From assembly GCA_035389045.1 (NCBI GenBank), contig DAOORA010000003.1, positions 1-64,000 of the forward strand: a DNA stretch of 64,000 nt, in the 5' to 3' direction. A program made the translations under genes and the position numbers. Under the pieces are notes generated by a model, which did no database searches, was not told the DNA's origin, and was given only the letters and a program-made list of their open reading frames with translations. Source of the stretch: Bacteroidales bacterium (GTDB lineage: Bacteria > Bacteroidota > Bacteroidia > Bacteroidales > CAIWKO01). Of this stretch, positions 6,137 to 24,682 are shown in pieces (within the stretch, counting starts at the first letter, position 1; every line of letters begins with the position of its first letter).

Positions 6137-6150
6137 TAATCTTATTTTTT

Positions 6151-6183
6151 AAAAAAGGCTGACTATCGTCAGCCTTTTTTTTT
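6151..6183 (+). terminator. rho-independent terminator
   Basis: AAAAAAGGCTGAC-TATC-GTCAGCCTTTTTTTTT perfect hairpin with U tract. Confidence 0.85.
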
Positions 6184-6402
6184 GATCCAACCCCAACACC
6201 CTTAAAACTATTGGCGGCAACGGCTACACGGCTCACGGCAGCATAAGCCTTTCGCATCCCGCAGGAGCTCCTGAAAAGCAGCAGTAATGCCACTTTCAGC
6301 CAAAAAGTCACAGGTAGGTAATAAATATTCGATATGTTTTCATATCCTGTCTTGTATAAATTTTAGTACTTTTGTGCACTTAATTTAAATAAACTTTAAC
6401 TC

Positions 6403-7863
6403 ATGAAAAAAATTCTTGTTCTGTGTCTGATTATTTTTGCCTGCATCTCCGGCATTAATGCACAAACAGCCGATAGAAAATGGAGTGTGGGGATCAACGG
6501 AGGTTCAACGCAATACTGGGGTGACCGGGGGCACGGTTTTTACAGATTCGATAAAGGTTTTTATGGTTTCGGCGGATTATCGGTTTCGCGTTACCTCTGC
6601 AACTTTTTTGATATTGTATTGCAAGGAAATTATGGCGGTATTGGTTATTCCAAATCAATGAACAATAACTTTCATTCTTCGCTGATCTTTTCTGATTTAA
6701 CAGCACGTTTTAAATTCCTGGGTAACGATAAAGCCAAACTTTCGCCTTATATCTTTTTTGGCATAGGATACATGCATTTTAAAGACATAAATACTGGTGA
6801 GACCTGGGACAATCTTGCTTTGCCATCATGCGGTATAGGACTTACTTACCACGTTCTCCCCTATCTCGACCTGCGTTTTCAGGAAAAATATATTTATTCG
6901 AATTACGACAAGGTGGATCACCTCGCACATAAAGATGATGACAGCTATCTGCAACACGATCTCAGCGTGTCATTTAATTTCGGCAAATCTAAAGATTCTG
7001 ATAAGGATGGCATCGCCGACAAGAACGACAAATGCCCTGATGTAAAAGGCCTGCTGAAATTCGACGGCTGTCCGGATTCCGATAACGACGGAGTGACTGA
7101 TGCCGAAGATGCCTGTCCCGGCACACCCGAAAAAGTTAAAGTGGACGCCAAAGGGTGCCCGCTCGATACCGATGGCGATGGTATTGCCGACTACCTTGAT
7201 AAATGCCCTGAAGTGAAAGGTCTTGCCAGATTCGAAGGTTGTCCCGATACCGATAACGATGGTGTAGTGGATGCTGGCGATCAATGCCCCAACACTCCTG
7301 CCGGGGTGAAAGTTGATTTAAAGGGTTGCCCGCTGGATACTGACGGCGATGGCATTGCTGATTACCTGGATAAATGCCCCGAAGTAAAAGGTCTTGCCAA
7401 TTTAGATGGTTGCCCGGATAAAGACGGCGACGGCATACCCGATTATCTTGATAAATGTCCCGAAGTAAAAGGTATACCCGCAAACAAAGGATGTCCCGAA
7501 GTAAAGCAGGAGGTAAAGGAAATATTCAGAAAGGCATTACAGGGTATACAGTTTGAAACCGGAAAAGATGTTATCCGGCCTGTTTCTTTCCCTATCCTTA
7601 ACAACGTAGTACAAATCATGAAAGAAAACAAAGAATACAACCTCCTCATCAACGGACATACCGACAACGTAGGCGATGACCAGTCGAACATGGTTTTGTC
7701 GCAAAAACGCGCCGATGCCGTAAAAGCTTACCTCATAAAAAATGGTATAGATGCTAACCGTATGAAAGCATTCGGTTATGGCGAAACCAAGCCGGTGGAC
7801 GATAACAATACCCCTGCCGGCCGCGCTAAAAACAGACGTGTTGAGTTTGTGGTTGAATTTTAA
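6403..7863 (+). CDS. OmpA family outer membrane protein with TSP3-like repeats, copy 2
   Basis: same architecture as copy 1; own TACTTTTG -7 element at 6367-6374. Confidence 0.92.
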   Translation: MKKILVLCLIIFACISGINAQTADRKWSVGINGGSTQYWGDRGHGFYRFDKGFYGFGGLSVSRYLCNFFDIVLQGNYGGIGYSKSMNNNFHSSLIFSDLTARFKFLGNDKAKLSPYIFFGIGYMHFKDINTGETWDNLALPSCGIGLTYHVLPYLDLRFQEKYIYSNYDKVDHLAHKDDDSYLQHDLSVSFNFGKSKDSDKDGIADKNDKCPDVKGLLKFDGCPDSDNDGVTDAEDACPGTPEKVKVDAKGCPLDTDGDGIADYLDKCPEVKGLARFEGCPDTDNDGVVDAGDQCPNTPAGVKVDLKGCPLDTDGDGIADYLDKCPEVKGLANLDGCPDKDGDGIPDYLDKCPEVKGIPANKGCPEVKQEVKEIFRKALQGIQFETGKDVIRPVSFPILNNVVQIMKENKEYNLLINGHTDNVGDDQSNMVLSQKRADAVKAYLIKNGIDANRMKAFGYGETKPVDDNNTPAGRAKNRRVEFVVEF

Positions 7864-7957
7864 GTTACCTCTTTATGTAACAAAAAATAACAATATTCGT
7901 ATTTTATATCAGTTTCTAAAAATTTAATTATATCAATTATCTGTAAAAGTAAAAGTT

Positions 7958-9424
7958 ATGAAAAAATTAATCATTCTTTGCTTAATCGTGTTTGCTGCGG
8001 CTTATAGTTCCACTGCTCAGACAGCAGACAGAAAATGGAGTGTCGGCCTTTACGGCGGCACCAATCAATATGCCGGTGACCTCGGAAACGGTTTTTACCG
8101 TTGTGATAAGGGATTGTACGGAATGGGACAGCTAACCTTTTCCCGTTACATCAACCGCTTTTTTGATGTTTCCCTGCTTGGAAATTATGGAGTAATGGGC
8201 TATGACAAGGATATGGATTCTGTTTTCCATACTACCTTTCTTCATGGCAATATTAACATCAGACTGAAATTTTTAGGGAACGACAGTTATAAACTTTCTC
8301 CATATATTTTCGCCGGCCTGGGAGGTATGAGATTCAAGAACCTGAATAACAAATCCCAGAAATGGAATAACGCAGCAATTCCTGCCTGTGGTTTCGGCCT
8401 TACCTATCACGTTGCACCCATGATCAGCCTGCAATTTCAGGAAGCATTTATTTTTTCAGATTATGATAATGTGGATGGCGATCTCGGAAAATCATACTAC
8501 GACAATTATATGCAGCACAGCCTTGGCGTGATGTTGAATTTCGGCAAATTAAAAGATTCTGATAATGACGGCATTGCCGACAAAAATGACAAATGCCCGA
8601 CCGTAAAAGGACTGTTGAAATTCGACGGCTGCCCTGACACTGATGGTGATGGTATTGTGGATGCCGACGACGCCTGCCCCGGCACACCCGAAAAAGTTAA
8701 AGTGGACTCCAAAGGATGTCCGTTGGATACCGATGGTGATGGTATTGCTGATTATCTTGACAAATGTCCTGATGTCAAAGGTATTGCAAAACTCGAAGGA
8801 TGCCCCGATTCTGATAACGACGGCGTGGCCGACAAAGATGATAAATGTCCTTCAACACCTCCGAATGTAAAAGTAGATGCTAAAGGATGCCCGATAGATT
8901 CCGACGGTGACGGTGTGGCCGACCACCTGGATAAATGCCCGACCGTAAAAGGACCTGAAAACCTTGATGGATGCCCAGACAGAGACGGCGACGGCATCGC
9001 AGACAATATTGACAAATGCCCGGATGTAAAAGGCATTGCCGCCAATAAAGGATGTCCTGAAGTAAAGCAGGAAGTAAAGGATGTCTTCCAGAAAGCATTA
9101 CAGGGCATACAGTTTGAAACCGGAAAAGATATCATCCGTCCTGTTTCATTCCCCATCCTTAACAACGTCGCGAAAATCATGAAAGAAAACAAAGAATACA
9201 ACCTGCTCATCAACGGACATACCGACAACGTCGGGGACGACCAGTCGAACATGACCTTGTCGCAAAAACGTGCCGATGCCGTGAAAGCCTATCTTATAAA
9301 AAATGGTATTGACGCAAACCGTATGAAAGCCTTCGGTTATGGCGAAACCAAGCCGGTGGACGATAACAATACCCCTGCAGGCCGCGCCAAAAACAGACGC
9401 GTTGAGTTTGTTGTCGAGTTCTAA
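7958..9424 (+). CDS. OmpA family outer membrane protein with TSP3-like repeats, copy 3
   Basis: same architecture; C-terminal ~110 aa nearly identical to copy 2. Confidence 0.92.
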   Translation: MKKLIILCLIVFAAAYSSTAQTADRKWSVGLYGGTNQYAGDLGNGFYRCDKGLYGMGQLTFSRYINRFFDVSLLGNYGVMGYDKDMDSVFHTTFLHGNINIRLKFLGNDSYKLSPYIFAGLGGMRFKNLNNKSQKWNNAAIPACGFGLTYHVAPMISLQFQEAFIFSDYDNVDGDLGKSYYDNYMQHSLGVMLNFGKLKDSDNDGIADKNDKCPTVKGLLKFDGCPDTDGDGIVDADDACPGTPEKVKVDSKGCPLDTDGDGIADYLDKCPDVKGIAKLEGCPDSDNDGVADKDDKCPSTPPNVKVDAKGCPIDSDGDGVADHLDKCPTVKGPENLDGCPDRDGDGIADNIDKCPDVKGIAANKGCPEVKQEVKDVFQKALQGIQFETGKDIIRPVSFPILNNVAKIMKENKEYNLLINGHTDNVGDDQSNMTLSQKRADAVKAYLIKNGIDANRMKAFGYGETKPVDDNNTPAGRAKNRRVEFVVEF

Positions 9425-9441
9425 ACATTTTTAACTACCCT

Positions 9442-9478
9442 AAAATGACCTCTTTATGATTAAAGCGGTCATTTTTTT
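9442..9478 (+). terminator. rho-independent terminator
   Basis: AAAATGACC-T-CTTTA...TAAAG-C-GGTCATTTTTTT hairpin just after the ompA copy 3 stop. Confidence 0.7.
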
Positions 9479-9539
9479 GCCCTTTCCGTTCCATTCCCCC
9501 GTTCCCGTGCGATCCTGCCACGACGAATATCCTGAAGCT

Positions 9540-9742
9540 CAATAAATAAAAGATCCCATTTTTTTTCTGAGTTTGACACTTCAGAAGCCTATCTTGCTGA
9601 ATACATGACCTTTAGCAAATCCATTTTCGCACTACACACATTGGCATACCCCTTCCCTCCTTTGACAGCGAAAATCCAAAAATAACAGAAATGTTCGCGG
9701 CTTAGCATAAGCCCTTTGTGCTTCCTCCATATTTCCCTTTGA
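9540..9742 (+). repeat. left copy of ~200 bp direct repeat bounding the island
   Basis: core 9561-9728 aligns to 24416-24582 with 7 substitutions and 1 indel counted by eye. Confidence 0.95.
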
Positions 9743-10032
9743 ACCCTAAATTTTTAAGTAAAAGCATTAACAACTAATCCCGCCGGGGCAGACACAAAAT
9801 ACATACAAAGAAAATTCAAAGGAAGATTCGAACAAAATATCTTTTGAGATGCCCTCTATACAATCTCGCTCTATTATGGAAGAAGGAGTGTTAAGGAGTG
9901 AAAAAAAATACCCGCCCCGTTATCTTTTTACTGAAAAAAGAAAAAAGGCAATCTCGACTTTGAGACTACCTCTATTCTTAATGCATTTATGTATTAAAAG
10001 AAAAATGTTACCTGATTATGTTCGGAACTGGA

Positions 10033-10518
10033 TTATTTGCGCCATTCATATCGTGCATAATAGTCCGGAATTTGCGTGTCTTCATCAATTTCAATGATGG
10101 TTTCGTTGAAAACAAATAAAGTCCCGATGTAGCGTCCATCATTACCGTAGGTGTATTCATAAACACCGTTTATTGCACTTTCGTTATTCTGAATGTCAAC
10201 GGTTTTTTCAAAAGCTTTTGCGTTCTTGCCTTTTGATGATATGATCTTTTGTAGTACATACTCATTTTTGTTGCCATTTTTAAAGTACCATTTACAGAGC
10301 AATGCTCCGGTCCCGTTATCGGTCAGCACAATCTTTTCAACTTCGGTTTGAGATGAATACCATACACCAGAAAGAGTAAATTCTGGTATTTCAGGCAAAT
10401 TACTATTTGCCAAATCAACGCTTCTTGTCTGTTTTTGAGCGTTGATATTTGATGTGATTGCAAGGATTAATAAAAATGTTGCAACCATTAACTTGAAAGT
10501 TTTTTTTAATGTGTCCAT
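10033..10518 (-). CDS. hypothetical exported protein
   Basis: 161 aa ORF with signal peptide ending INA-Q; beta-rich; family not recognised. Confidence 0.75.
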   Translation of the reverse strand: MDTLKKTFKLMVATFLLILAITSNINAQKQTRSVDLANSNLPEIPEFTLSGVWYSSQTEVEKIVLTDNGTGALLCKWYFKNGNKNEYVLQKIISSKGKNAKAFEKTVDIQNNESAINGVYEYTYGNDGRYIGTLFVFNETIIEIDEDTQIPDYYARYEWRK

Positions 10519-10595
10519 AGTATAATGATTTATTTATTTTTACCTACTCTGTTATGGGTTTTCGGTTACTCCCGTTAATTGTTCGTATGACTGGT

Positions 10596-11657
10596 TTAAT
10601 TTTTTAATACGGCTACAGGCATTTTTGTATCATAAGAGCCATTTAATACCGGATTTTGTTCATAATTGGTATAGGTACTAACTCCGTCCTTAACATATTT
10701 ATATAACTCTATGATTGTAATGATCTTATCGTTATCTTTATTTGCAAGCCCTTGTAGTCCTTTGATCAGAAAATATGTGAAGACACCGTGCTTTAATTCA
10801 CTATATTCCCCCGATACTTCAGCTGCTGTACATGACATGAGCCTGGGCATACTCGGTTTTGAATTAATAATTGCCAAATCCAGTGTCGTACTGGCTGTTT
10901 TTACACCTTTGTAAATACCTGCATAGCATGCATCTGCTAGACAGATTTTATTTTTTGCACGGCTTGCATTAAATGATGCTTCAATAATAGAATAGTATAA
11001 TGCTTTTTCATCGCTTGTTACAAAATAACCCTCCTTGCTCCCATGCCCTGAGAAATAAAAATAAATAACATCATTTGACTGTGCTTTTGAAAAAACATTA
11101 TTCATAGCCTTATTAATATTAACCAACGTAGCATTTTCATTAAGCAATAATTGCATCTGAGAAGAGGGCGTGCCCCCGCCTGCCTCGCTTTTTAAAAAAT
11201 CATAAACAGTTTTCGCATCCGATGCTGCAAAATGAAGCTGGTTAGCTTCACTTGCGTAATTGGAAATACCAACAATCACGGCATAAATGTTTACCCTGAT
11301 CGTATTAGTGTTGCTGGTTCCAGAATTTGCGGAAAGTAAATTGGAAAAATTTAAATCCGTACCATTTGCCTGTGATGTATTAGCTCCACTTGTGCCTGAT
11401 GATGTCATTTGAGTAGGAGGAGTCGTTGTAAAACTTCCATTATAATAATAGCAGTTTGTTGCCCTTGTTGGCTTGGTTTGAGGTGGTGGGGTCGTTGTAA
11501 ATTTGCCATTATAATAATAGGCGTTTGAAGCCCTAATGGGCTTGGTCGGCGCTTGTCCTTGAGCTTGTATTTGTCTGTTTTGCGAAAACACTGTCACTGA
11601 TTGCAGGGCAATCAAAGTGATGATTAAAATTTTCATTTTTGTTTTCATAATTTTCAT
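10596..11657 (-). CDS. secreted caspase-family (peptidase C14) protein
   Basis: signal peptide; AVIVGISNY, LHFAASDA, FYFSGHG (His), ADACYAG (Cys), HGVFTYFLIKGL, QNP. Confidence 0.9.
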   Translation of the reverse strand: MKIMKTKMKILIITLIALQSVTVFSQNRQIQAQGQAPTKPIRASNAYYYNGKFTTTPPPQTKPTRATNCYYYNGSFTTTPPTQMTSSGTSGANTSQANGTDLNFSNLLSANSGTSNTNTIRVNIYAVIVGISNYASEANQLHFAASDAKTVYDFLKSEAGGGTPSSQMQLLLNENATLVNINKAMNNVFSKAQSNDVIYFYFSGHGSKEGYFVTSDEKALYYSIIEASFNASRAKNKICLADACYAGIYKGVKTASTTLDLAIINSKPSMPRLMSCTAAEVSGEYSELKHGVFTYFLIKGLQGLANKDNDKIITIIELYKYVKDGVSTYTNYEQNPVLNGSYDTKMPVAVLKN

Positions 11658-11677
11658 TTTTAATTTGATAAATTTTA

Positions 11678-11854
11678 TTATCTTAATTTTACTTTTACTG
11701 CTTTAATAATTGAGATAACCTGTTCTTCAAACATATCGAATTGTAAAAGAGCATTGATAACCTCTTTCTCCGTTTTACCCTGTTCCAGCATGATTTTAGC
11801 AAGCTTTTTTGTTGCATTTGCTATCATTTCATAATTGTTTATTAACAGTATCAT
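11678..11854 (-). CDS. small hypothetical protein (58 aa, below the ORF-track cutoff)
   Basis: MILLINNYEMIANATKKLAKIMLEQGKTEKEVINALLQFDMFEEQVISIIKAVKVKLR*; fills the gap between a -7 element and the caspase gene. Confidence 0.55.
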   Translation of the reverse strand: MILLINNYEMIANATKKLAKIMLEQGKTEKEVINALLQFDMFEEQVISIIKAVKVKLR

Positions 11855-11876
11855 TTTATTTGGTTTTATTGTTAAA

Positions 11877-11928
11877 CAAAATTACCTTCAACTTGTTCTT
11901 ATAACAATTACAGTAAATATTCAGTAAA
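11877..11928 (-). promoter_or_regulatory. regulated promoter P1: 11-bp tandem repeat plus -7 element
   Basis: plus strand ATTACAGTAAA-TATTCAGTAAA (11907-11928); TAATTTTG on minus at 11877-11884. Confidence 0.7.
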
Positions 11929-12171
11929 TGTTTTTTTTGTCTTTTTCAGATACTTTTTAAAATATACAACAGGCAATCTCAGTTCCCCCAAATTAACCCA
12001 GTCGCCATCTCTCACAAGAAAATCATAATATAAAAAGTCCGGTAGGCTGGAATAACTGTAAATTATTTTATTATCCAAATTTAATCCGTAAATTAATATT
12101 TGTACGCCATGTTCAATAGGGACTATTTGTTCGAGTTTATGCCTTTGTCCGTTTTGTTTTTTTATCTTCAT
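11908..12171 (-). CDS. hypothetical protein (~87 aa)
   Basis: ORF with ATG at 12171 directly downstream of promoter P2; family not recognised. Confidence 0.5.
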   Translation of the reverse strand: MKIKKQNGQRHKLEQIVPIEHGVQILIYGLNLDNKIIYSYSSLPDFLYYDFLVRDGDWVNLGELRLPVVYFKKYLKKTKKTFTEYLL

Positions 12172-12200
12172 ATGCAATAGAGATTTAACAATTTATTAAA

Positions 12201-12252
12201 CAAAAATAGCCCGCTAATGCAGGCTATCCTATTACAGTAAAATTACAGTAAA
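12201..12252 (-). promoter_or_regulatory. regulated promoter P2: perfect 11-bp tandem repeat plus -7 element
   Basis: plus strand ATTACAGTAAA x2 (12231-12252); TATTTTTG on minus at 12201-12208. Confidence 0.7.
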
Positions 12253-12324
12253 TTAATGCGCTTGTTCCTCAGGTGTGAAATTTACACTTTGGGTTTTGAC
12301 ACCAATAGGAAAAAAATGAATCAT

Positions 12325-13578
12325 TTATTCTTCAAGATTTTCAATGATTTCGTCAATTGTTTTTTTATGCCGGGTATCACCTATCCACCGGTCAACAATT
12401 ATAAATTTCATCTTATTAATCGTATCAGGGATATAGCTCTTTTCAATATTAAGGGCCTTAGTTTGTTTTAACACATCGGGTTTCAGTACCTGCTCCTTAT
12501 ATAAATAATGTAATTTAAGCTCTTCATGAATTCTACTCCACACACCGTTGTCTGCAATGTATTGAGTGTTTTCTTCATGCAGGGCAAAATATAAATAAAG
12601 AAGAGACCCCAAATCCCCAAGCCATTTTATATGCGTATACGAAGGGATTCCATAGTGATGGTCCTTAAAAACCTCATACGGCGTTTCAGTGTCAATAAGT
12701 TTTACGGAATTTCCCATATCGCCAATCTTTTCTCCACACAATGCTTTGTGCAATTTTTTTAACCAGGATTCTTCCTTTTGCCACATCAATAAAGGAGTTT
12801 CTTCTGCCCGGGCAATATCCTTATCTGTAATAACCCTTGTCTTTTTCGAAGATTTTAATGCCTTGCTGATAATGGTATGCAAATAAATAATATTATCACA
12901 TTCCAAACTGGCAAGCCTCTCGCATCCCTCCGGTGATAATACTTTTTCATCTTGATATAAATGTTTGTTGATTTGGTCAAAAATTATCTGGACGAGCAGG
13001 CGTTTCTCTTCTGTTTTCTGTAGATTATTGTTTTTTGTAAGATTAAAAAACTTAATCAGGCTGCTATTTAGTACTTCCAATCTTTTATTGCTTAATATAA
13101 GCTGATTCTGAAGTTCAAAAATTCTCAAACTTGTGGTAACCATTGCACGAAGGATGTAATAGTTCTTATCTGTTTTATCAATAAACCCGTTAATTTCATA
13201 CCCCAGGGCAATCTCGTGCGGAAACATAATTGTTTTTCCTGCCTGCCCCGTACATATGATTATTTGAGTAAGTTTGTTTTTCTGATGATGCCGCAGGAAA
13301 TTGACAACTTCAAATCCGCTTTTGTCGTTTTCCATTACAATATCTAACAAAATAACTGCCGGGCCGGCAACTTTTAACGATGCAATTGTATCTGCTGCAT
13401 TTGTGAAAAAATGAAGTTTCAAATTTTTGCCATTGTATGTAAAATCATCAAGGGCTAATTCTGTTGATTTTAGTGTGTTTGGGTCATCATCTACCACGTA
13501 AACAATCCATGGATCGTTATCCAATACTATTGTTTCTTTTCCCTTTGCAAATTGATACATCTCTTTTTCCATAAACAT
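12325..13578 (-). CDS. response regulator (receiver domain plus uncharacterised C-terminal domains)
   Basis: VVDDDP, ILLDIVME (phosphoacceptor Asp), TGQAG, FIDK; lies 15 bp downstream of the kinase. Confidence 0.88.
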   Translation of the reverse strand: MFMEKEMYQFAKGKETIVLDNDPWIVYVVDDDPNTLKSTELALDDFTYNGKNLKLHFFTNAADTIASLKVAGPAVILLDIVMENDKSGFEVVNFLRHHQKNKLTQIIICTGQAGKTIMFPHEIALGYEINGFIDKTDKNYYILRAMVTTSLRIFELQNQLILSNKRLEVLNSSLIKFFNLTKNNNLQKTEEKRLLVQIIFDQINKHLYQDEKVLSPEGCERLASLECDNIIYLHTIISKALKSSKKTRVITDKDIARAEETPLLMWQKEESWLKKLHKALCGEKIGDMGNSVKLIDTETPYEVFKDHHYGIPSYTHIKWLGDLGSLLYLYFALHEENTQYIADNGVWSRIHEELKLHYLYKEQVLKPDVLKQTKALNIEKSYIPDTINKMKFIIVDRWIGDTRHKKTIDEIIENLEE

Positions 13579-13593
13579 ATATATTTACTTTAT

Positions 13594-15513
13594 CTAATTA
13601 TCATTGTCAGAACTTTTAATAGGGAAAGTAATTGTAAAAGTCACGCCAAGTGATTCATCGCTTTCGCAGCGAATATTTCCTTCCAGCCCTTGTTCCACAA
13701 TTCTTTTGACATTGCTTAACCCCATTCCTTTAATGCCCTTCTGAGTTGAAAAATAATCATCAAATATTTTTGGCAAAATGTCTGGGGGTACGGGTCGCCC
13801 ATTGTTGTTGCAATTAATAATTAGTTCCTCTTCTTTCTTATCAACAAAAATAGATATTTTTTTATCTGGGATCTCATAATGATTAAAACCGTGTTCAATT
13901 GCATTGTTTACAAGGTTTAATATTACCTGTGAAATAAATCCCGGATGTGTTGAAATGCATAAGTTCTCAGGGGCTAATATGCTATATGATATTTTTTCTT
14001 TTTGTAGTTTATATGAAAGTGTTTGTACACATAACTCCAGGTATTCTTTTAATTGAATAGTTTTTAACTCATTTCTTACCTGATCGGCAGTGATGGTCTG
14101 GAAGCTATCTATCCATTCTGCCACCCGGTTCATGTCCGAATAAATAAGTTCGCCTATTTCAAAACTTTTATTTCTGAAACTAATCAAATCTGATTCTGAT
14201 AATTCTTGCTCTTTTAATTTTAAATCCAGTTTTGTGATTAAAGCGCATAATGTGCTTGAAAACAATTTTGTGCTACCTATAGGTGTTTTCAGGTCATGAG
14301 CCAAACCTACTACCATATCGCTTATGAAGGCTTTTTTCTGCGATTCAAACAACTTTGCAGATGATTCTTCCAATTCATCTGTAGTTTGTTGAAGTTTTAA
14401 ATGCATATCTTTTAAATCAGAATAAGCAGTATGTATTTGCTTGTTCTTTTTTGATAATTTTTTTAAGAAAAATAAAAAAGTAAACAATAATAAAATACAA
14501 AGTGTTATGATGCTTAATGCTACAAATAATTTTATCGATAACTTCTTTTTTGCTTTTGTGGTTTCACTAATTATATCGTATTGGTTTTGTATTGAATCTT
14601 GCTGTTTGCTTATTATTATTGCGTTATTATTTATAGTATTACATGCTCTTTCTATTTCCTTATCCAATGAAATAAGGCTGTCTTTTTTAAGTGCTATTAT
14701 GGAATTTGTTGACAATATCCAGGAGTACATTTTATAATACATAAGATAATCAGCACTAACAAAAACATCATTAAAATTTAAATTTTTCTCTTCAGGTAAA
14801 TATTTAATATTTTTTAAATCAGCCGCTAAGAGTTCTGATTGTTCATCATAATCACCCTCATAGCGGTAACGAAAATTGATTAAATATGCAGGTAGTGTTC
14901 TCAATTTTGTGCTACTAATATTAAGAACGGCAAGTGAATACTTTAATTTAATAAATGATTCAGGCAATTCTTCAAAATCATTATTATGTAAATATAAATC
15001 TAAAAGCGTTGTTAGTGCTCCAATATTTTCAGGTAATTTTTTTAATTTGTTATACGATAAATTCAAATACCTTAGGTTACAAAGATGTTCAATATTCTCA
15101 GGCAATACTTGTATCTCATTAAAACTTAAGTTCAGGAATTCAAGCGACTTTAGTTCAAATAATTGGGGTGATATCTTTTTAATTTTATTGTTCCCCAAAC
15201 TAAGGTGTTTTAAATTTTTCAGTTTCGACCAATCAAGACCACCTAAGCTTTCATTATCACAGGAGTCAGCTTCAAGCCATAATAGATTGGGAAATTTAAT
15301 CAACTTCTCTGTTATATTTTTATCTTGATAGTTAGAAATGTTTAATTTAATCATTTGTTCCGGACTAATCTGTTCCAAGTCGCGATAAGTGTGAGCAGGC
15401 ATATCCATTAACTCATCATATGTTTTGCCTTGCTGTGCGTATAGAGAAACAGATATGCCAACTAAAAACACTGTAAGAAACTTTGTAAAAATTGTGCTAA
15501 TGTTATTTTTCAT
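13594..15513 (-). CDS. leucine-rich-repeat sensor histidine kinase
   Basis: signal peptide; ~6 LxxLxLxxNxLxxLP repeats; one TM helix; H-box LAHDLKTP; N-box NLVNNAIEHG; NNNG, IFDDYFST and GMGL boxes. Confidence 0.92.
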   Translation of the reverse strand: MKNNISTIFTKFLTVFLVGISVSLYAQQGKTYDELMDMPAHTYRDLEQISPEQMIKLNISNYQDKNITEKLIKFPNLLWLEADSCDNESLGGLDWSKLKNLKHLSLGNNKIKKISPQLFELKSLEFLNLSFNEIQVLPENIEHLCNLRYLNLSYNKLKKLPENIGALTTLLDLYLHNNDFEELPESFIKLKYSLAVLNISSTKLRTLPAYLINFRYRYEGDYDEQSELLAADLKNIKYLPEEKNLNFNDVFVSADYLMYYKMYSWILSTNSIIALKKDSLISLDKEIERACNTINNNAIIISKQQDSIQNQYDIISETTKAKKKLSIKLFVALSIITLCILLLFTFLFFLKKLSKKNKQIHTAYSDLKDMHLKLQQTTDELEESSAKLFESQKKAFISDMVVGLAHDLKTPIGSTKLFSSTLCALITKLDLKLKEQELSESDLISFRNKSFEIGELIYSDMNRVAEWIDSFQTITADQVRNELKTIQLKEYLELCVQTLSYKLQKEKISYSILAPENLCISTHPGFISQVILNLVNNAIEHGFNHYEIPDKKISIFVDKKEEELIINCNNNGRPVPPDILPKIFDDYFSTQKGIKGMGLSNVKRIVEQGLEGNIRCESDESLGVTFTITFPIKSSDNDN

Positions 15514-15560
15514 ATTCGTTTTGTATTTTGGGGTTACCGTTCAAAAAAAATAAGATAATA

Positions 15561-15612
15561 CAAAATAACCTTAAAAAAAAATCCTGATAACTATCAGTAA
15601 ATTTACGGTAAA
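15561..15612 (-). promoter_or_regulatory. regulated promoter P3 upstream of the kinase-regulator operon
   Basis: plus strand CTATCAGTAAA-TTTACGGTAAA (15591-15612); TTATTTTG on minus at 15561-15568, same spacing as P1 and P2. Confidence 0.6.
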
Positions 15613-15667
15613 TTAAATATTCTTGCATTAATATGATTTTTGTTCAAACAATTTAAAATTTTTAATT

Positions 15668-16402
15668 ATGAAAAAAATTATTATTGCAAGCGTGCTGATC
15701 ATGTTATATATAACATGTGTAAAATCCCAAAATGACATGTCCTTAAATGAGGCAATATCAAAATCCAAAGATTTGACGGATAATAACTGGCCATTAAAGG
15801 ATTCCTCAATAGCCAGGCAAATAGCAAATACATTTATATATAATTCCGTGCCGGAAAACATTAAGGCTAAATCATTAGATTATCTCAATAAGGCAACACT
15901 CATAATTTCTGTATATTCTCCATATTTTAACAATATGAATGGCCTGGTTGATGAAATGAAAACGGGAATAACCGAAAAAGACAGGCAGATTCTGGAGGAA
16001 AATATTCAAATTGCCTTCCCTGAACTCCAGGACTTTTCTTTATGGAGTTGTACAAAATTTCTGCTCAAAAACCATTCTAAATTTCCGGTATATTTAGCAA
16101 ATGAAATCATACTTAAAGTAATCTTTGGTACTCCGGAAAGAAATGGTGATGATGGTTTGTTCAAATGGATCAACTGTAATGTTTTAGAAGATAAATGCTT
16201 TGAAGCTATTGCGCCCATGTTTGATTATTATTTATTAGAATATGCTCCAAAAACCATTGTTTACGATAAAAAATCAATTAAATTCGATGATTTATGTGGG
16301 GCCTATGGATGTTACGAAGAATTTTTGAACAATTGTAAACTGGCAATAACAAAAGGTTATGTCTTCCCTGAAATTGATAAAATTAATTGCAAACCAAAAT
16401 AA
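15668..16402 (+). CDS. hypothetical exported protein
   Basis: 244 aa ORF with N-terminal signal peptide; Cys-rich C-terminus. Confidence 0.75.
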   Translation: MKKIIIASVLIMLYITCVKSQNDMSLNEAISKSKDLTDNNWPLKDSSIARQIANTFIYNSVPENIKAKSLDYLNKATLIISVYSPYFNNMNGLVDEMKTGITEKDRQILEENIQIAFPELQDFSLWSCTKFLLKNHSKFPVYLANEIILKVIFGTPERNGDDGLFKWINCNVLEDKCFEAIAPMFDYYLLEYAPKTIVYDKKSIKFDDLCGAYGCYEEFLNNCKLAITKGYVFPEIDKINCKPK

Positions 16403-17212
16403 ATGAAAAAAACACACAAAACCGCCAGGCTTGTCTATCAAAGCATTTTCATGGTTGTGATTAGCATAAATATTGCCTGTTCACACCATAAAAGCGAAAA
16501 TATTGATGCCCATTGCAATGGTCAAACAGCAACCGAAAGGTCATCTATAAATAAAGATTCTGCGATTGACAAAATCCTTCTTGTTGGTTTCAGTGATGAT
16601 AGCATTCAAAAAAATAAAGAAATAAGCATGCTTTTAGAATATATGGAAAAAAAAGAATTGGATTTAAAATACAGAAAAACAATGCTCATTAGTCTTGAAT
16701 CAATGGAAGTATGCATGAATTCATCACAAAAACTCAGATTTGTAAAATTAAGGGATTCCAAAACAACAAATGTGTGTTACGTTAATCAATCCGGTGGCGA
16801 ATTTGATACGGTTACTTTTAATAAGAATCTGAAATTATATTTAAGGTCGAATCATTATAAGGTTTATGATGATTTAAGTACTGAGCAGCTTGCAGCAAAA
16901 TGCAATGAAATTTTTACTGATAAAGTTAACGCAAGATATGCATCAGGCGTTCCGGCAAACCAGGTTTTAACAGCTGATGATTTAAACTATTTGGCCGGGT
17001 CAAGTGGCTTTTTGGAATATTGCTATGAAAAAATCATTTCAATAAATGACAGTACAAAGAAATTAGCCTGGGTTAAAAGCTTAAGCATTATAAATGAAAT
17101 GATAAATGCCGTACCGGTTGTTTTGTGGAATGATAAAAAAGTAAAAGTGAAGCGGGCTTCGCAATATTACCTTAATTCAAAATACAATGAATTAATTGAG
17201 AATTATAAATAA
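16403..17212 (+). CDS. hypothetical lipoprotein
   Basis: 269 aa; lipobox-like NIAC; ATG abuts the upstream TAA. Confidence 0.72.
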   Translation: MKKTHKTARLVYQSIFMVVISINIACSHHKSENIDAHCNGQTATERSSINKDSAIDKILLVGFSDDSIQKNKEISMLLEYMEKKELDLKYRKTMLISLESMEVCMNSSQKLRFVKLRDSKTTNVCYVNQSGGEFDTVTFNKNLKLYLRSNHYKVYDDLSTEQLAAKCNEIFTDKVNARYASGVPANQVLTADDLNYLAGSSGFLEYCYEKIISINDSTKKLAWVKSLSIINEMINAVPVVLWNDKKVKVKRASQYYLNSKYNELIENYK

Positions 17213-17231
17213 TTTCCTTATGACAACGATA

Positions 17232-17383
17232 AATTAGTGTATGTCCATAAAGTCGGAGTTTGAACCAGTATGTTCGAATTCGAGGCTTTCGAAGTTTTGA
17301 AAATCAAGGAGTTTGCTTTTGCAAATGACTGTTTTTAAAACGAGAATAACGATGAAGTCGGACATGATGGACAAACTCTAATT
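17232..17383. mobile_element. MITE/REP-like element with terminal inverted repeats
   Basis: AATTAGTGTATGTCCAT (17232-17248) vs ATGGACAAACTCTAATT (17367-17383), 15/17 complementary; non-coding interior. Confidence 0.6.
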
Positions 17384-17396
17384 AATAAACAAAAAC

Positions 17397-17840
17397 ATGA
17401 ATAGTACAAGAAAACAATTAATCACAATTATTATTGCAGTTATAGCCCCTTTAGGTGCTTTTAGCTCTTGTTCAAACAACAATGTCAAGCCCTATGATGG
17501 TTCGGGCGACACAACAAAAATAGAAATAATTAAGAAAATACTAGCGGATAGCATCCACGACTTTACTGATTATGAGGTATTATTTTCAGGTACAGATCCT
17601 CTGGTGATGGAAGCAGTAAATGTTTTCAAATCAGACACCTCTGAAGTTAATGCTAAAAGATTATTAGTATTAGAAAAGTTATATCGTTCTGCTGAGGAAA
17701 TGTCGAACAGGCTTTTGCTAACAAAGGAGGCAAAAACACAGGCCGATTCAATTATCAGTTGGCCTATTTTCAGGTGGGGGTCTGAACCACATAAAAAATG
17801 GCGCAATGCAATATCGGAAGCGGCAAAAAAGATTTACTAA
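17397..17840 (+). CDS. hypothetical lipoprotein
   Basis: 147 aa; hydrophobic leader ending FSSC. Confidence 0.72.
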   Translation: MNSTRKQLITIIIAVIAPLGAFSSCSNNNVKPYDGSGDTTKIEIIKKILADSIHDFTDYEVLFSGTDPLVMEAVNVFKSDTSEVNAKRLLVLEKLYRSAEEMSNRLLLTKEAKTQADSIISWPIFRWGSEPHKKWRNAISEAAKKIY

Positions 17841-17881
17841 ATTGTATTGTTCAGAATTTCAAATTTAAAAACCTTCTGCCA

Positions 17882-18781
17882 ATGAGTTTAATTTTTTTAA
17901 GCAAAATAAAAAGTCAGACCGCTGCGATTTTAAAAGCGCATGAAGTAATTGAAGATGCTGAGGCAGGTCAGATTGATTATAGTAAAGCTAATAACCTCAA
18001 CTTTTGGAGTCATAAGGGCTTGTGTTTTAAGCTTAATTATAACAAATTTTCTACCGGCCTTATGTTTTTTGAAATTTTAGGTAAAGAAGAATTATTCGAC
18101 AATGAACCATCTGATGCACCTTTAATTATAGATGGCAGCCATAATGAGACCAATAAAATTGTAAGTGATATTTTTTATAATGATTACCGCATAGAATTAA
18201 GCTATGATAATGGTAAAAACTTCATTAGAAAAACTTATGTGGACAAAACTAAATCACAAGCTGTGCAATGCGATTACAATGTATTAATTAATCCAATTTC
18301 CGGATATTTATTAAATTTTCAATTGACCTTATCTGGCGCATACAATGACCCTCAAGGGGAAAATAAAAGAATTGAATATCACAACTCCATTTTTTTTATG
18401 TCCGAGCCGCATCCTTCTGATAATACAATAATTGATTATCAAACACTTTTTGTCGTTGAAAAGAACTGCTCATTGATGACGATATATAATCCGATAAAAA
18501 AAGAACCCTTCCCGATGGACAAACGAAACACGTATGTTTTTAGATTTAACAAAAACTGGGTATTTGAAGAAGCATATAAGTTGTTTATGAATAAAGATCA
18601 AAAATGCTGGTCTGCCTCCATGGATGCGGAAGAAATAAAAAGTATTTTCATCCCGGGCTTTGGTTTTGATCCTTTCAATACAACTTTCAATTTCAATTCA
18701 AGCATGGAAAATATTATGAAAGGTGTTGATGACAGTGAAAATATTGACCTGAAAAAATGTATTATAAAAAATTACCATTGA
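17882..18781 (+). CDS. hypothetical protein
   Basis: long ORF; ATG at 17882 chosen to avoid overlap with the upstream gene; no signal peptide. Confidence 0.7.
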   Translation: MSLIFLSKIKSQTAAILKAHEVIEDAEAGQIDYSKANNLNFWSHKGLCFKLNYNKFSTGLMFFEILGKEELFDNEPSDAPLIIDGSHNETNKIVSDIFYNDYRIELSYDNGKNFIRKTYVDKTKSQAVQCDYNVLINPISGYLLNFQLTLSGAYNDPQGENKRIEYHNSIFFMSEPHPSDNTIIDYQTLFVVEKNCSLMTIYNPIKKEPFPMDKRNTYVFRFNKNWVFEEAYKLFMNKDQKCWSASMDAEEIKSIFIPGFGFDPFNTTFNFNSSMENIMKGVDDSENIDLKKCIIKNYH

Positions 18782-18924
18782 TTTTCGATTTAAAAGAATA
18801 TAATGACTGTTCCTTAAAATTGTATTCCAAAGCTTGCCAGCTTTCTAAAGCATTAAATTGTCTTTGCAAGATAATTCATGTTGGAACTGCATGGTGCATT
18901 TGAATAGATAAAATAAAAATATAT

Positions 18925-21900
18925 ATGAGTACAACTAATGAGCAAAAAGCAGATGATCTGCTAAACAACATGGAAAGTAACAAAAAGATGGAGAAGGATA
19001 TTCATGAACTCATTTTAAAATATCCTGAGGTATACACAAAAGAAGCGGTAAAGGGACTTATAACAAAAGCTATAAACGCCAGAACAATTATGACCTCAAG
19101 GGATTATCTATCAAAAGCGGGAATAATAATTAATCATGCCGGATGGAGAGATGAAGATGAAATTATTACTTTATTTAATGATGCAATAGCCGAGATCAGC
19201 ATAACTCCACAACGACTGATGTTACTAAGGACAAAACTATTATACCAGAGTAATAAAATGGCTGACAACAGTCCTCTTTATGAAAAAAATTATTACAAAC
19301 TACTCATGACTGAGGCAGATCATTTGAAAGAAATCGTTGATATTTTTAAATTGTCCGTAATTTCATTAGATTCGTTAAAAGTAATGATGAATATAAATTT
19401 AGATAGATTGAATGATAGCTATATTTCATTGCCATTATATGGAACTTTTGCTTTGAATTTTGAAGATAGTCTTTTATATAATGCAAATAGACTAAGGAGA
19501 AAGGAATTTATTGATAATGCAAGGGTGGCGTATGGCTTAAAAGCAGAAAAATGCGATGATAATTTACTGAAAGGATATATGCTTGATCTGGTAAAAAAGA
19601 TGGATGAAATTGAAATCGAATGTGAGGATGTTTTGAAATTATTCAGAGTATTACTGTTATGCAATAATGATTTTATTGATTACGGTGGTGTCAAACCTAT
19701 TAGAAATTTTTTTTCAGAGAATTCAGAAATGGCATTATTTTTAATTGGCGAATATCCCCGGATTGATTTTAATTTAAGCAAACTGACTCCAGAGGATTTT
19801 ATGAATTATGAGAATGAAGAAAAAATTATTTCTTTAAGTAAGGGCCTTGAATTATTAAAATATATTCAAGGATTAAAAAATGATAAAGAGGCGGTTTTAG
19901 TTGCTATTAATAAAGATGTCAAAGCATTGAAACATACCGCTGATGTGTTAAAAGATGATAAAGAGTTTATTTTGGAAGCAGTTAAACATGATGGGAGGGC
20001 GTTAGAATTTGTATCTGAAGAATTAAGAGCAGATAAGAAATTAGTTCGGCAGGCGGTAAGTAATTATGGAGGGGCATTGCAATATGCCTCTGAAGAATTA
20101 AAAGCAGACAAAGAATTGGTTTTGACGGCGGTTAATAATAATGGATGGGCATTGCAATTTGCATCTAAAGAATTCAAAAATAATAAAGAAGTGGTATTGA
20201 AGGCAGTTGAACAAGAAGGAGATGCTTTGCAATTTGCAACTGATTTATTTAAAGCGGACAAAGATATCGTTTTAACTGCTGTAATCTCTAATGGTAAAGC
20301 TATACGATTTGCTGCAGATTTACTCAAAAATGATAAAGATGTGGTTTTAACTGCTATTATTAAAGATGTCGAAGCGTTGAAATATGCCGCTGAAGTGTTA
20401 AAAGCAGACAAAGAATTTGTTTTGGAGGCGGTTAAACAGAGTGGCGATGCATTGGAATACGCCTCCGAAGAATTAAAAGCAGACAAAGAATTTGTTTTGG
20501 AGGTGGTTAAACAAAATGGCTTAGCACTTAAAGGTGCCACTGAAGAATTAAAAGAAGATAAAGAAGTTGTTCTGGTAGCTGTAAAAAATTCCGGTTGTGC
20601 TTTAAAATATGCCTCTGATAAATTTAAAGCAGACAAAGAAGTGGTTTTGGAGGCTGTCAATCAAAATTTTTATGCATTGGAATATGCTTCCCCGGAACTC
20701 AAAAATGAAAAAGAATTTGCATTAATAGCAATTATTAATAATGACTCTGATATTCATGAAGATGAAACCTTATTGCAAGATGTTTCCGAAGAACTAAAAA
20801 ATGATATTGACGTTGTTCTTGCAGCGATTAGAAAAGACGGAAGAAACCTGAAATTTGCCTCTGAAGAATTAAAAGCAAACAAAGATGTTATTTTGGCAGC
20901 GGTTAATCAAAATGGAATGGCATTGGAATATGCCCCCGATAAATATAAAGCAGACAAAGAAGTGGTTTGGGAGGCGGTTAGTAACATTGGATGGGCATTA
21001 GAATTTACTTCTGAAGAATTAAGAGCAGATAAGAAATTAGTTCGGCAGGCGGTAAGTAATTATGGTATGGCATTGCAATATGCCTCTGAAGAATTAAAAG
21101 CAGACAAAGAATTGGTCTCAGCGGCAGTTAAAAATGCTGGCTGGGCATTGCAATTTGCTTCTGAAGAGTTAAAAGAAGACAAAGTTGTGGTTTTATTGGC
21201 AGTTATAGAAAATGTAACGGCATTGAAATTCTTATCTGAAAAACTAAAAAATGATAAAGAGTTCGTTTTGACGGTGGTTAAAAAATATTGGGAAGCCTTG
21301 CAATATGCTTCCCCTGAACTCAAAAATGACAAAGAAATTGTATTTACGGCGGTAAATAAAAATTTCAAAGCATTAGAATTCGCATCAAAAGAACTAAAAA
21401 ATGATAAAGAGTTTGTTTTGACGACAGTTGAACAAAAATGGGAAGCATTACAATACGCTTCTCAGGAACTCAAAAATGATATTGAAATAGTATTTGCAGC
21501 GGTTAAACAAAATGGGTGTTCATTGGGATATGCCTCTGATAAATATAAAGCAGACAAAGAAATGGTTTTGACGGCGATTAGAAATAATGGAGGGGCATTG
21601 CAATATGCCGCTGATGAATTAAAAGCAGATAAAGAAGTTGTATGTGTCGCTGTTTGTAACTATGGCTATGCATTGGCATATGCCTCTGAAAAATTAAAAG
21701 CGGACAAAGAAGTGGTTTTAGCTGCTGTTAGAAAAGATGGATGGGCATTTCAATTTGCTTCTGAAGAGTTAAAAGAAGACAAAGAAGTGGTTTTGGCGGC
21801 GGTTAAACAAAAAGGCTATGTATTGCAATCTGCCTCTTGGATTCAAAAGGCAGACAAAGATGTGGTTATGGCAGCGGTTAATCAAGATGGCGGAGCATTG

Positions 21901-22665: not shown

Positions 22666-22764
22666 GCCCTGAAGAGAGGAAAAAATGATCTTTCAACGGT
22701 TTTATATTTACAAAATAAATCACAAGTTTTGCAATGCGATAACAATATCTTAATTAAAAAAACT

Positions 22765-23883: not shown

Positions 23884-24018
23884 TTTTTGGTTAAGTAAAT
23901 AAACCAAAAATTATAAATGTAAAATTGTTTTGATTACGTTTAAAGATGGAAAATATTGATTAATAATGAACCACAATAGTTTTTTGTTGTAGTATACGTA
24001 TATTTAAAATTTATTATT

Positions 24019-24559: not shown

Positions 24560-24596
24560 CAAAAGCCCTTTGTGCTTCCTCCCTGTTATCCTTTGA
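24393..24596 (+). repeat. right copy of ~200 bp direct repeat
   Basis: matches 9540-9742. Confidence 0.95.
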
Positions 24597-24682
24597 GCTT
24601 TGTGGTTAATAAAAGGTACTGAACCTCAAAGGAACTTCTAAAAAACTTTTTCATTTCCGGGATTTGCATTCGATATGAATAC

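Follow-up and report, generated by a model that had tools for sequence, protein, structure and literature searches.

Two-component systems perceive what their sensor domains allow them to perceive, and the closest described systems are single-pass kinases of the Bacteroidota with periplasmic TPR or beta-propeller heads, among them the hybrid two-component systems (HTCS) of Bacteroides of the BT4663 type. Leucine-rich repeats (LRRs), with which eukaryotic receptors of innate immunity and development classically recognize proteins and peptides, are not listed among the sensors of bacterial histidine kinases in the literature searched. The window analysed here, a stretch of 64,000 nucleotides of a wastewater Bacteroidales bacterium, contains an open reading frame of 639 amino acids with an ATG start (13594..15513, minus strand, as are all parts of the kinase and of the response regulator described below), which combines an LRR domain with a histidine kinase core. 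The sequence strings that a first-pass annotation had quoted for this protein (...SVSLYA-Q, LRYLNLSYNKLKKLPENIGALTT, LFVALSIITLCILLLFTFLFFL and KKLSKK) are all present in the reading frame. Our analysis supports a sensor histidine kinase with an extracytoplasmic LRR, which is single-pass after cleavage of its signal peptide. The variant is genuine yet rare, and the signalling design behind it is ordinary for bacteria: a known modular scheme whose sensor domain has been swapped.

The kinase possesses two hydrophobic segments only, at residues 4-26 (Kyte-Doolittle 1.82) and 323-355 (2.88). The former lies in the signal peptide, residues 1-26 (15436..15513; MKNNISTIFTKFLTVFLVGISVSLYA, then QQ), with SVSLYA followed by QQ at residues 21-28. 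An Ala-Gln junction after the hydrophobic stretch occurs in six of the seven full-length LRR-kinase relatives, the query counted, and in the kinase it fits the Q-rule for signal peptidase I sites of Bacteroidetes (PMC5837995). The signal peptide is thus probably cleaved; an uncleaved one would make the kinase a two-pass protein and would leave the location of the LRR unchanged. The second segment contains the transmembrane (TM) helix LFVALSIITLCILLLFTFLFFL (residues 329-350, 14464..14529), at the Kyte-Doolittle peak. The orientation of this helix had been deduced from the basic residues that follow it, an argument that fails: five lysine or arginine residues are found on each flank (KAKKKLSIK before, KKLSKKNK after), and the positive-inside rule therefore decides nothing at this helix. 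The topology follows instead from the N-terminal signal sequence and from the fact that an ATP-dependent kinase must be cytoplasmic. Since the relatives are named as Bacteroidales or Bacteroidota, which have a diderm envelope, the LRR should face the periplasm, behind the outer membrane. For this reason, a macromolecular ligand, which had been read from the topology, is not implied as it would be for a receptor exposed on the cell surface.

The ectodomain begins with an N-terminal cap region (residues 27-52, 15358..15435), for which short helices at residues 32-36 and 43-47 are predicted, and continues with seven LRRs (residues 53-215, 14869..15357). The structure discussed here is an AlphaFold model whose underlying alignment comprises only seven sequences. 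The repeats were recognized by Pfam LRR_8 (E 5.7e-15, 55.3 bits against a cut-off of 27), LRR_14 (E 2.9e-17, 62.9 bits against 40), LRR_4 (E 2.7e-10, 40.6 bits against 27) and LRR_1, by sequence matches in the PDB and by the strands of the model. The best PDB sequence matches are LRRD1, the Leptospira proteins LIC11098, LIC10831 and LIC12759, and SHOC2 (E 1e-46 to 1e-35). About six repeats of 23 residues had been counted before; the repeats themselves are borne out, but their number is seven, of which the two N-terminal ones are degenerate and repeats 3 to 7 follow the canonical pattern LxxLxLxxNxLxxLPxxI, for example LRYLNLSYNKLKKLPENIGALTT at residues 147-169. In the model, seven short beta-strands at residues 56, 79, 103, 126, 149, 172 and 196 recur with a period of 23 to 24 residues, and the predicted fold is a curved solenoid with one short strand per repeat, which matches the typical/SDS22-like 23-residue class. 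Block pLDDT values are 77-95 over residues 31-190, with 77-78 in the cap region (residues 31-50), and 81-82 over residues 191-210. In the closest homologue, P0002, the LRR is 66% identical to the query, and the DHp and CA domains are 67-69% identical; on this one pair, the LRR is conserved like the catalytic core, which argues for constraint and gives no hint of diversifying selection.

The repeats are followed by a segment that possibly serves as a C-terminal cap (residues 216-253, 14755..14868); it has low model confidence (block pLDDT 48-72), gave no family match in Pfam and is 47% identical to its counterpart in P0002. Between this segment and the membrane lies the periplasmic stalk (residues 254-328, 14530..14754), modelled as one helix over residues 254-321. 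The first-pass annotation had called it a coiled coil: the helix is supported by the model, and a coiled coil is plausible, as 63-88% of the heptad a/d positions are hydrophobic compared with 44% for the whole segment, although the register drifts. Length and sequence of the stalk vary among homologues. A further model helix, residues 327-436, passes through the TM segment into the DHp domain; the TM/DHp region has low confidence (block pLDDT 42-67).

The cytoplasmic part consists of a linker and a HisKA-like DHp domain (residues 351-480, 14074..14463), which aligns with the H-box of HK853, and of the CA domain (residues 481-639 and stop codon, 13594..14073). Both a HisKA and a HATPase domain had been proposed for it. 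HATPase_c was recovered with an E value of 2.8e-19 (70 bits against a cut-off of 26.4), and the block pLDDT of the CA domain is 74-91 apart from a dip at the ATP lid. Pfam HisKA (PF00512) stayed below its gathering score (14.6 against 26.9 bits, E 0.035), yet phmmer aligns residues 398-639 to HK853 (2c2a/3dge, E 1.4e-12), with H406 in AHDLKTP (codon 14296-14298) placed on the histidine of the SHELRTP H-box. The HisKA matches of the relatives P0188, P0151 and P0201 (E 1e-4 to 1e-6; 4.5e-6 for P0188) likewise lie at or below the cut-off.

Fifteen nucleotides downstream of the kinase gene, on the same strand, lies the gene for its cognate response regulator (417 amino acids, 12325..13578). On the other side of the kinase gene, the 154-bp region 15514-15667 presumably holds a divergent promoter. 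Its receiver domain (REC, approximately residues 24-136, nt 13171-13509; Response_reg E 4.8e-9) has the expected fold (Z 19.4 to 3cfy) and an intact active site, in which D30, D79, T110 and K135 are invariant. A long helix (residues 140-181) leads to a mostly helical, unannotated C-terminal domain of about 230 amino acids (approximately residues 185-417, nt 12328-13026), which carries invariant His, Glu, Trp and Tyr residues, among them H307, H351, E353 and H357. For this part of the protein, Foldseek against the PDB and the wide VIA-align search returned REC matches alone (PorX, NtrC1 and others), whose alignments barely reach beyond residue 166; the Atlas gave no usable match, a profile search against PDB sequences gave REC matches alone (E of at least 0.016), and no Pfam family recurred across all six members. 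The domain might have an enzymatic function or bind DNA through a new type of fold. In one metatranscriptome, whose RNA library may contain DNA, short exact contigs lie on the response regulator gene at 12258-12481, 12570-12834 and 13290-13469; such contigs were also found on a reading frame of 161 amino acids. The metatranscriptome pieces listed on the kinase are only stretches of 18 to 21 bases of an unrelated 13-kb contig, which show neither expression nor silence.

A homologous response regulator adjoins an LRR kinase in a second genome, G043 (30% identity over 421 columns, E 7e-35), and this recurrence of the pair defines the unit as a two-gene module. Besides kinase and response regulator, the two loci have nothing in common; with no conserved third gene at the two loci compared, the gene neighbourhood offers no candidate for the ligand. 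The DNA of the island around the pair is low in GC and unmatched in five genomes of the same genus, and the copy in G043 is surrounded by integrases, RadC, RepO-like and Dam genes. The pair thus sits in accessory or mobile DNA. Neither the kinase nor the response regulator matched a defence system in PADLOC. A neighbouring caspase-like protein matches the PADLOC 'caspase' model.

Judged by sequence homology, the kinase core is that of a Bacteroidales family in which TPRs or a beta-propeller usually form the outer domain. Among 19 relatives scanned with Pfam, 11 carry TPRs, three a Reg_prop/Y_Y_Y propeller, two LRRs and one PAS alone, and two showed no outer domain; one kinase core under different periplasmic heads points to a swap of the sensor domain. 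The architecture is uncommon, as the first-pass annotation had suggested: among 401 genomes of the order, at least three carry it, and none of 17 genomes of the same genus gave an LRR-spanning match. Eight cluster representatives with this architecture were recovered among 12 scanned, which were drawn from the best 150 matches of an exhaustive search. P0002 is a full-length relative with 56-59% identity and the same order of parts, P0003 (831 amino acids) keeps this order with extra LRRs, and the domain order of the query is also found in P0126, P0179, P0201 and the fragment P0188; the architecture is thus conserved and not a chimera of the assembly. In P0155 and P0174, LRRs are attached to a second kinase subfamily. 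The span of a match was also tried as a proxy for the LRR; G030 and G175 matched from residues 122/125 to 630/631 yet are TPR kinases, and the span was therefore replaced by Pfam scans. A contig search with back-translated patterns retained 80 loci, all of them ordinary kinases of other phyla with 20-34% identity, as the patterns were too generic. In a profile word search, only P0002, P0003 and the self-fragment P0001 carried PF02518 among the 120 matches listed, and plant and animal LRR proteins swamped the rest; since P0126, a member of the alignment, is absent from these matches, the search gives no count of the architecture. In agreement with the first-pass annotation, which knew of no periplasmic LRR as a standard kinase sensor, no description of an LRR-headed bacterial histidine kinase was found in the literature searched. 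The expectation that LRR-headed kinases are described in a review of eukaryotic histidine kinases was not borne out: the terms 'LRR' and 'leucine-rich' occur in neither PMC6324907 nor PMC6944256, two reviews of eukaryotic and archaeal histidine kinase sensor domains.

In GHKL ATPases, the aspartate of the G1 box contacts adenine, and its replacement by asparagine abolishes ATP binding in other GHKL proteins. The query departs from the canonical DxGxG, as its G1 box reads N570-N-G572-R-P574 where HK853 has D-N-G-I-G; with Asn570 and with proline in place of the second glycine, kinase activity is not assured. Ten of the 11 family members have this asparagine, TPR-type kinases among them. Together with the sub-threshold HisKA score and the preserved HDxxT phosphatase motif (HDLKT in the query, which we take to fit the HisKA pattern E/DxxT/N), this would be compatible with a pseudokinase, in which the asparagine blocks ATP and the ligand regulates a phosphatase or scaffold function towards the response regulator, whose phosphorylation would come from another donor. 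We regard this as unlikely, since the remaining motifs of the ATP site are invariant or nearly so (N537 of the N box, G572 and the G2 glycines G596-M-G598-L are invariant across the 11 members, and the F box is retained) and H406 is invariant in all 11, which is hard to explain without nucleotide binding. Moreover, asparagine may still be able to form a hydrogen bond with adenine N6, and P0179, whose core is otherwise similar, retains the canonical DNGKG. The query is thus presumed to be an active kinase despite its G1 asparagine.

A different question is whether the LRR senses at all, as it might constitutively dock the kinase to a protein or complex of the envelope, or localise it there, with the stimulus being perceived by this partner or by the membrane and stalk. 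The 23-residue class to which the best PDB matches, SHOC2 and the Leptospira LIC proteins, belong comprises protein-interaction scaffolds, access of external macromolecules to a diderm periplasm is presumably limited, and some other kinases work with a co-sensor protein, for example LuxQ with LuxP. However, the two loci share no partner gene, and the number of LRRs ranges from about seven to about 14 among homologues, as expected for a head under specificity tuning; docking alone is accordingly a quite improbable role. The equally basic TM flanks would also permit a reversed topology with a cytoplasmic LRR, and no single contig piece in the public runs examined spans LRR and kinase core, as would be seen if the fusion were a chimera of assembly or annotation. 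Both possibilities are very remote: the kinase needs cytoplasmic ATP and its response regulator, exactly one strong TM segment separates it from the LRR, the N-terminal signal with its Ala-Gln site is shared by six of the seven full-length LRR-kinase relatives (the query counted), and the domain order is repeated in the independently assembled P0002, P0003, P0126, P0179 and P0201 and in G043.

The reading we prefer, and consider probable, is that of a functional two-component module of two genes on accessory DNA, consisting of the LRR-headed kinase and the adjacent response regulator; it builds on the observed domain order, homology, gene pairing, rarity and mobility. The signal peptide would export the kinase and be removed, thereby yielding a single-pass protein whose periplasmic part comprises a horseshoe of seven LRRs and a helical stalk of about 70 residues, and whose HK853-like DHp and CA domains lie in the cytoplasm beyond one TM helix. 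From the TM segment, the helix is predicted to continue unbroken into helix 1 of the DHp domain, and the kinase presumably acts as a dimer, as do the related TPR- and propeller-headed kinases of the Bacteroidota. A ligand accessible in the periplasm would bind the concave face of the LRR and thereby alter how the two stalk/TM helices pack, and this piston- or scissor-like movement may shift the balance of kinase and phosphatase activity at His406. The ligand is most likely a protein or peptide, either a partner that resides in the envelope or periplasm or a fragment that has been imported. The phosphoryl group would then be passed to Asp79 of the response regulator, whose novel C-terminal domain is expected to deliver the output. 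A bolder version, which we consider conceivable but doubtful, is that of a horizontally mobile and self-contained cassette, in which the periplasmic LRR reads a specific protein or peptide cue (e.g., an imported fragment that stems from neighbours, from phage or from the envelope of the cell itself), the nucleotide pocket is atypical because of the G1 asparagine, and the C-terminal domain of about 230 amino acids constitutes a new output module.

With an LRR head that is small and conserved, and with a kinase that is tractable, the protein could serve as a minimal system for solenoid-driven signalling across a single TM helix, with the natural TPR- and propeller-headed cousins as domain-swap controls. 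It would also reveal which proteinaceous cues the diderm periplasm can sense, and the output domain of the partner regulator is unannotated, with very few relatives known. Rarity limits the value of the system, as it is known from a handful of uncultured lineages from sludge, digesters and other metagenomes.

Compared with the TPR- and propeller-headed kinases of the Bacteroidota, which come from the same taxon, the query has a homologous DHp/CA core (E 1e-31 to 1e-84) and the same layout of signal peptide, repeat head, helical stalk, one TM helix and kinase, but its head is an LRR solenoid (two of 19 relatives as against 14 of 19 with TPR or propeller). It differs from the Bacteroides HTCS in that Pfam found no Reg_prop, Y_Y_Y, Response_reg or HTH_18 in the kinase; no REC or AraC domain is fused to it, and the response regulator is encoded by a separate gene and has an unannotated output domain. 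The H-, N-, F- and G2 boxes align with HK853 of Thermotoga maritima and the EnvZ class of HisKA kinases over residues 398-639, whereas the G1 box is NNGRP instead of DNGIG and HisKA is sub-threshold in Pfam; furthermore, the PDC-like or helical sensor of that class lies between two TM helices, while the query would have a single one after cleavage. The closest solved bacterial LRRs, those of Leptospira LIC11098, LIC10831 and LIC12759 (PDB 4u08, 4u06 and 4u09; E 1e-41 to 1e-35), are exported 23-residue repeats like those of the query, but they are stand-alone, secreted or surface proteins without TM helix or kinase. With the plant LRR receptor kinases (FLS2, TDR/PXY and ERL2) and TLRs, to which the first-pass annotation had likened the protein, the query shares the order of signal peptide, LRR, single TM helix and cytoplasmic signalling domain, and its LRRs match the TDR and ERL2 ectodomains (E 1e-16 to 1e-19). 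Beyond this topology the parallel breaks down: the repeats are of the 23-residue SHOC2/LIC-like type (LPxxI) and not of the 24-residue plant type, no LRRNT_2 cysteine cap (PF08263) was matched at E <= 0.1, the output domain is a histidine kinase with no Pkinase or TIR match in Pfam, and the LRR presumably lies behind an outer membrane. The resemblance to plant receptors and TLRs is thus an analogy of topology only and not membership in these families.

The kinase encoded at 13594..15513 on the minus strand has an exported leucine-rich repeat (LRR) head, a helical stalk, one transmembrane (TM) helix and a core like that of Thermotoga maritima HK853, in which the His, N, F and G2 boxes are intact. 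The reading frame reported by the first-pass annotation was recovered as a single frame of 639 codons, the translation of which holds all strings quoted there. Pfam matches comprise the LRRs at residues ~96-212 (LRR_8, E 5.7e-15; LRR_14, 2.9e-17; LRR_4 and LRR_1), HATPase_c at residues 525-633 (E 2.8e-19) and a sub-threshold HisKA at residues 399-428 (E 0.035). NCBIfam likewise gives LRR matches and partial matches to the kinase core (PnpS, VanS, AtoS and others), all far under the equivalog cut-offs. A phmmer search of PDB sequences aligned residues 398-639 to HK853 (2c2a/3dge, E 1.4e-12) and placed His406 at the phospho-acceptor histidine; for the LRRs, the matches were LRRD1, Leptospira LIC11098/10831/12759 and SHOC2 (E 1e-46 to 1e-35). 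Residues 327-634, with the TM helix and the kinase part, are also matched (E 6e-13) by a 1233-aa kinase encoded elsewhere in the window (57423-61124, plus strand).

An AlphaFold2 model was built from a 7-sequence family alignment (mean pLDDT 71.9, pTM 0.43). The LRR solenoid has block pLDDT values of 77-95 for residues 31-190 and 81-82 for residues 191-210, and strands at 56, 79, 103, 126, 149, 172 and 196 reveal seven repeats with a period of 23-24 residues, compared to about six of 23 residues in the first-pass annotation. Repeats 3-7 follow the canonical pattern LxxLxLxxNxLxxLPxxI, and repeats 1-2 are degenerate. Residues 216-253 have no family match and low model confidence. The stalk is predicted as one helix (254-321), whose heptad a/d positions are 63-88% hydrophobic compared to 44% across the segment, with a drifting register. 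A second predicted helix (327-436) spans the TM segment (329-350) and runs without a break into helix 1 of the dimerisation domain DHp, followed by DHp helix 2 and the alpha/beta catalytic domain CA; this continuity is suggestive only, since model confidence is low in the TM/DHp region (block pLDDT 42-67).

A Kyte-Doolittle scan revealed only two hydrophobic segments, 4-26 (1.82) and 323-355 (2.88). The positive-inside argument previously put forward for the orientation fails, as five Lys/Arg are found in the 15 residues before the TM helix and five in the 15 after it. The topology follows instead from the requirement of the kinase for ATP and a cytoplasmic regulator, from the presence of exactly one strong TM helix between kinase and LRR, and from the N-terminus, where a short run of hydrophobic residues ends in Ala|Gln-Gln. 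A hydrophobic stretch followed by Ala-Gln is found in six of the seven full-length LRR-kinase relatives, including the query, the exception being P0155. The junction agrees with the Q-rule described for substrates of signal peptidase I in Bacteroidetes (PMC5837995, PMC10653852). Neighbouring exported proteins within the window carry the same junction. We infer from sequence that the signal peptide is cleaved; the LRR would be periplasmic even if the N-terminal segment remained uncleaved.

In the proposed mechanism, the kinase would dimerise through DHp, as is established for all HisKA kinases, and the two stalk/TM helices would relay to DHp a change that ligand binding induces in the LRR heads. 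Such a helix relay has also been proposed for the propeller-headed hybrid systems of Bacteroides. The phosphoryl group would then be transferred from His406 to Asp79 of the response regulator. A proteinaceous ligand, present in or reaching the periplasm, is favoured by analogy because LRRs of this class, with SHOC2 and the LIC proteins as best PDB matches, bind proteins or peptides; this is the weakest step of the mechanism. The sequence HDLKT, which fits the HisKA phosphatase motif E/DxxT/N, suggests that the protein may also work as a phosphatase. The G1 box reads N570-N-G-R-P (region of residues 566-570, 13804-13818) compared to D-N-G-I-G in HK853, with Asn for Asp and Pro for the second Gly; 10 of the 11 kinase subfamily members share this Asn, TPR-headed ones included. 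In GHKL ATPases, the equivalent Asp contacts adenine, and Asp-to-Asn exchanges in Hsp90 and GyrB abolish ATP binding. The loss of this contact residue could point to a phosphatase-only protein or a pseudokinase; however, every other nucleotide-site motif is strictly conserved, which argues that nucleotide is still bound, and we consider such a role unlikely.

The cognate response regulator is encoded 15 nt downstream on the same strand (12325..13578, minus strand) and has 417 amino acids. Its receiver domain (REC) is recognised by Pfam (E 4.8e-9) and by VIA-align (Z 19.4, rmsd 1.8 over 130 residues vs 3cfy), and six homologues all share D30, D79, T110 and K135. A long helix (140-181) leads to a mostly helical domain of ~230 residues (~185-417; 12325-13026), in which W266, H307, W319, Y330, H351, E353, H357 and Y358 are invariant. 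No match to this domain came from Pfam, NCBIfam, PADLOC, the PDB sequences or the Atlas, and fold searches with the regulator were filled by REC matches. A word search yielded eight matches, two to REC only and six covering >=89% of the query, among them the regulator itself and a 100%-identical 415-aa form; judged by this search, the family appears to be tiny.

Among 1.84 billion representatives, an exhaustive phmmer search with the kinase gave 171,637 matches, the best 150 of which are mostly giant LRR proteins. In 13 of these 150, the top stretch lies in or reaches the kinase region, and 12 were scanned with Pfam, omitting the self-fragment P0001. Eight combine LRR and HATPase_c (P0002, P0003, P0126, P0155, P0174, P0179, P0188 and P0201; P0174 and P0188 are fragments), two combine TPR and HATPase_c (P0129, P0131) and two have no recognised head (P0128, P0151). 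With their canonical DNGHG/DNGSG, P0155 and P0174 fall into another kinase subfamily; LRR heads therefore joined histidine kinases at least twice. A word-index search returned 293 proteins (E <= 0.001); of the 120 matches listed, just two carry PF02518 together with LRR families: P0002, with 631 aa, 56% identity and 99% coverage, and P0003, with 831 aa and 38% identity. The query and P0002 share 66% identity in the LRR, 67% in DHp and 69% in CA, compared to 23-47% in stalk, TM and caps; on this single pair, the LRR head appears constrained rather than diversifying. Source names of the relatives, where given, are generic, e.g., "ATP-binding protein [Bacteroidales bacterium]" or "signal transduction histidine kinase". 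The ESM Atlas clusters listed for the kinase (>=50 members) are histidine-kinase clusters, none with an LRR family.

The genome of origin, G000 (4.46 Mb, 96% complete), encodes one LRR kinase, ordinary kinases and one stand-alone LRR ORF. None of 17 same-genus genomes gave a match covering the LRR; in two (G001, G007), only the kinase core was matched (E ~1e-25). In an order-level sample of 401 genomes, G000 included, 16 had a match at E <= 1e-30, and a phylum-level sample of 400 other genomes gave none at E <= 1e-35. The head is exchangeable within the kinase family, TPR being more frequent than propeller and propeller more frequent than LRR: the kinase ORFs of 19 loci from the order sample (nine further listed matches without a locus were left out) carry 11 TPR heads (two also with PAS), three Reg_prop/Y_Y_Y, two LRR and one PAS only, and two of the ORFs have no recognised head. 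The LRR-headed loci are in G043 (identical to P0126) and G200, where no start codon precedes residue 226. LRR kinases thus occur in at least three of the 401 genomes (G000, G043, G200), a lower bound since three candidates per genome were scored. The G200 frame (L093, contig 213, 619-2301; 561 codons, second kinase subfamily) starts inside the LRRs and may be truncated or broken.

In G043 (locus L109, contig 36, 1-18000), the LRR kinase (7465-9462, minus strand) adjoins a homologue of the regulator (6265-7443, minus strand; 30% identity over 421 columns, E 7e-35). When 14 ORFs of the window and the 18 ORFs of this 18-kb locus were compared all against all by BLASTP, the kinase and regulator were the only genes in common, apart from a weak, integrase-like match of 38 residues, which makes the pair of genes the conserved unit. 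Downstream of the window's regulator, an 89-aa ORF (11908-12177, minus strand) shows weak similarity to an inner part of a phage-type integrase from the G043 locus (39% over 38 residues, E 0.001) and may be a mobile-element remnant. Around the G043 pair are genes for three tyrosine integrases, for RadC and a RepO-like protein, and for a Dam methylase; two family-less ORFs follow the pair, one of 622 aa with a weak PADLOC mad8 match (E 5e-5), the other of 219 aa. The module is part of the accessory DNA and is probably mobile. In the window, it lies in an island of ~9500-22700 with a GC content of 0.29-0.36, compared to 0.41-0.47 in the flanks, which contains a secreted caspase-like protein (Peptidase_C14; 10596-11657, minus strand), a 1246-aa protein with 22 DUF4116 repeats (18925-22665, plus strand) and several exported ORFs without families. 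A comparison of 20 kb of DNA (6001-26000) with five good genomes of the same genus gave matches in the flanking OmpA, PBP and DUF5686 genes (65-75% identity) and otherwise just in one 162-bp intergenic stretch. This stretch (17234-17395) is 83% identical to a G010 contig on which the surrounding genes are unmatched, and could be a small repeat, regulatory element or RNA. Three tandem OmpA-family paralogues with thrombospondin type-3 repeats (485, 486 and 488 aa) are encoded at 4679-9424 (plus strand). At the edge of the island, two adjacent ORFs (22729-23418 and 23500-23883, plus strand) each hold part of a PBP transpeptidase domain (profile positions 2-139 and 174-299), probably a broken gene. 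The stretch with the module recurs at about 100% identity in DNA runs from several activated-sludge and digester studies.

The first-pass annotation had called a periplasmic LRR a non-standard sensor, which is borne out by its presence in at least 3 of 401 genomes of the order and by the literature searched, which covered few subscription journals and yielded no description of an LRR-headed histidine kinase of this type; reviews of histidine-kinase sensor domains (eukaryotic/archaeal) do not mention LRRs. The kinase is real, rare and uncharacterised, a familiar signalling design with a variant sensor domain, and travels with a regulator carrying an unannotated output domain. It shares homology and mode of action with the TPR- or propeller-headed single-pass sensor kinases of Bacteroidota, an LRR having been swapped in as its head. 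The plant LRR-RLK and TLR families do not include it; it differs from them in its repeat subclass, the absence of an LRRNT cap, its cytoplasmic domain and the predicted location of the LRR, periplasmic rather than at the surface.
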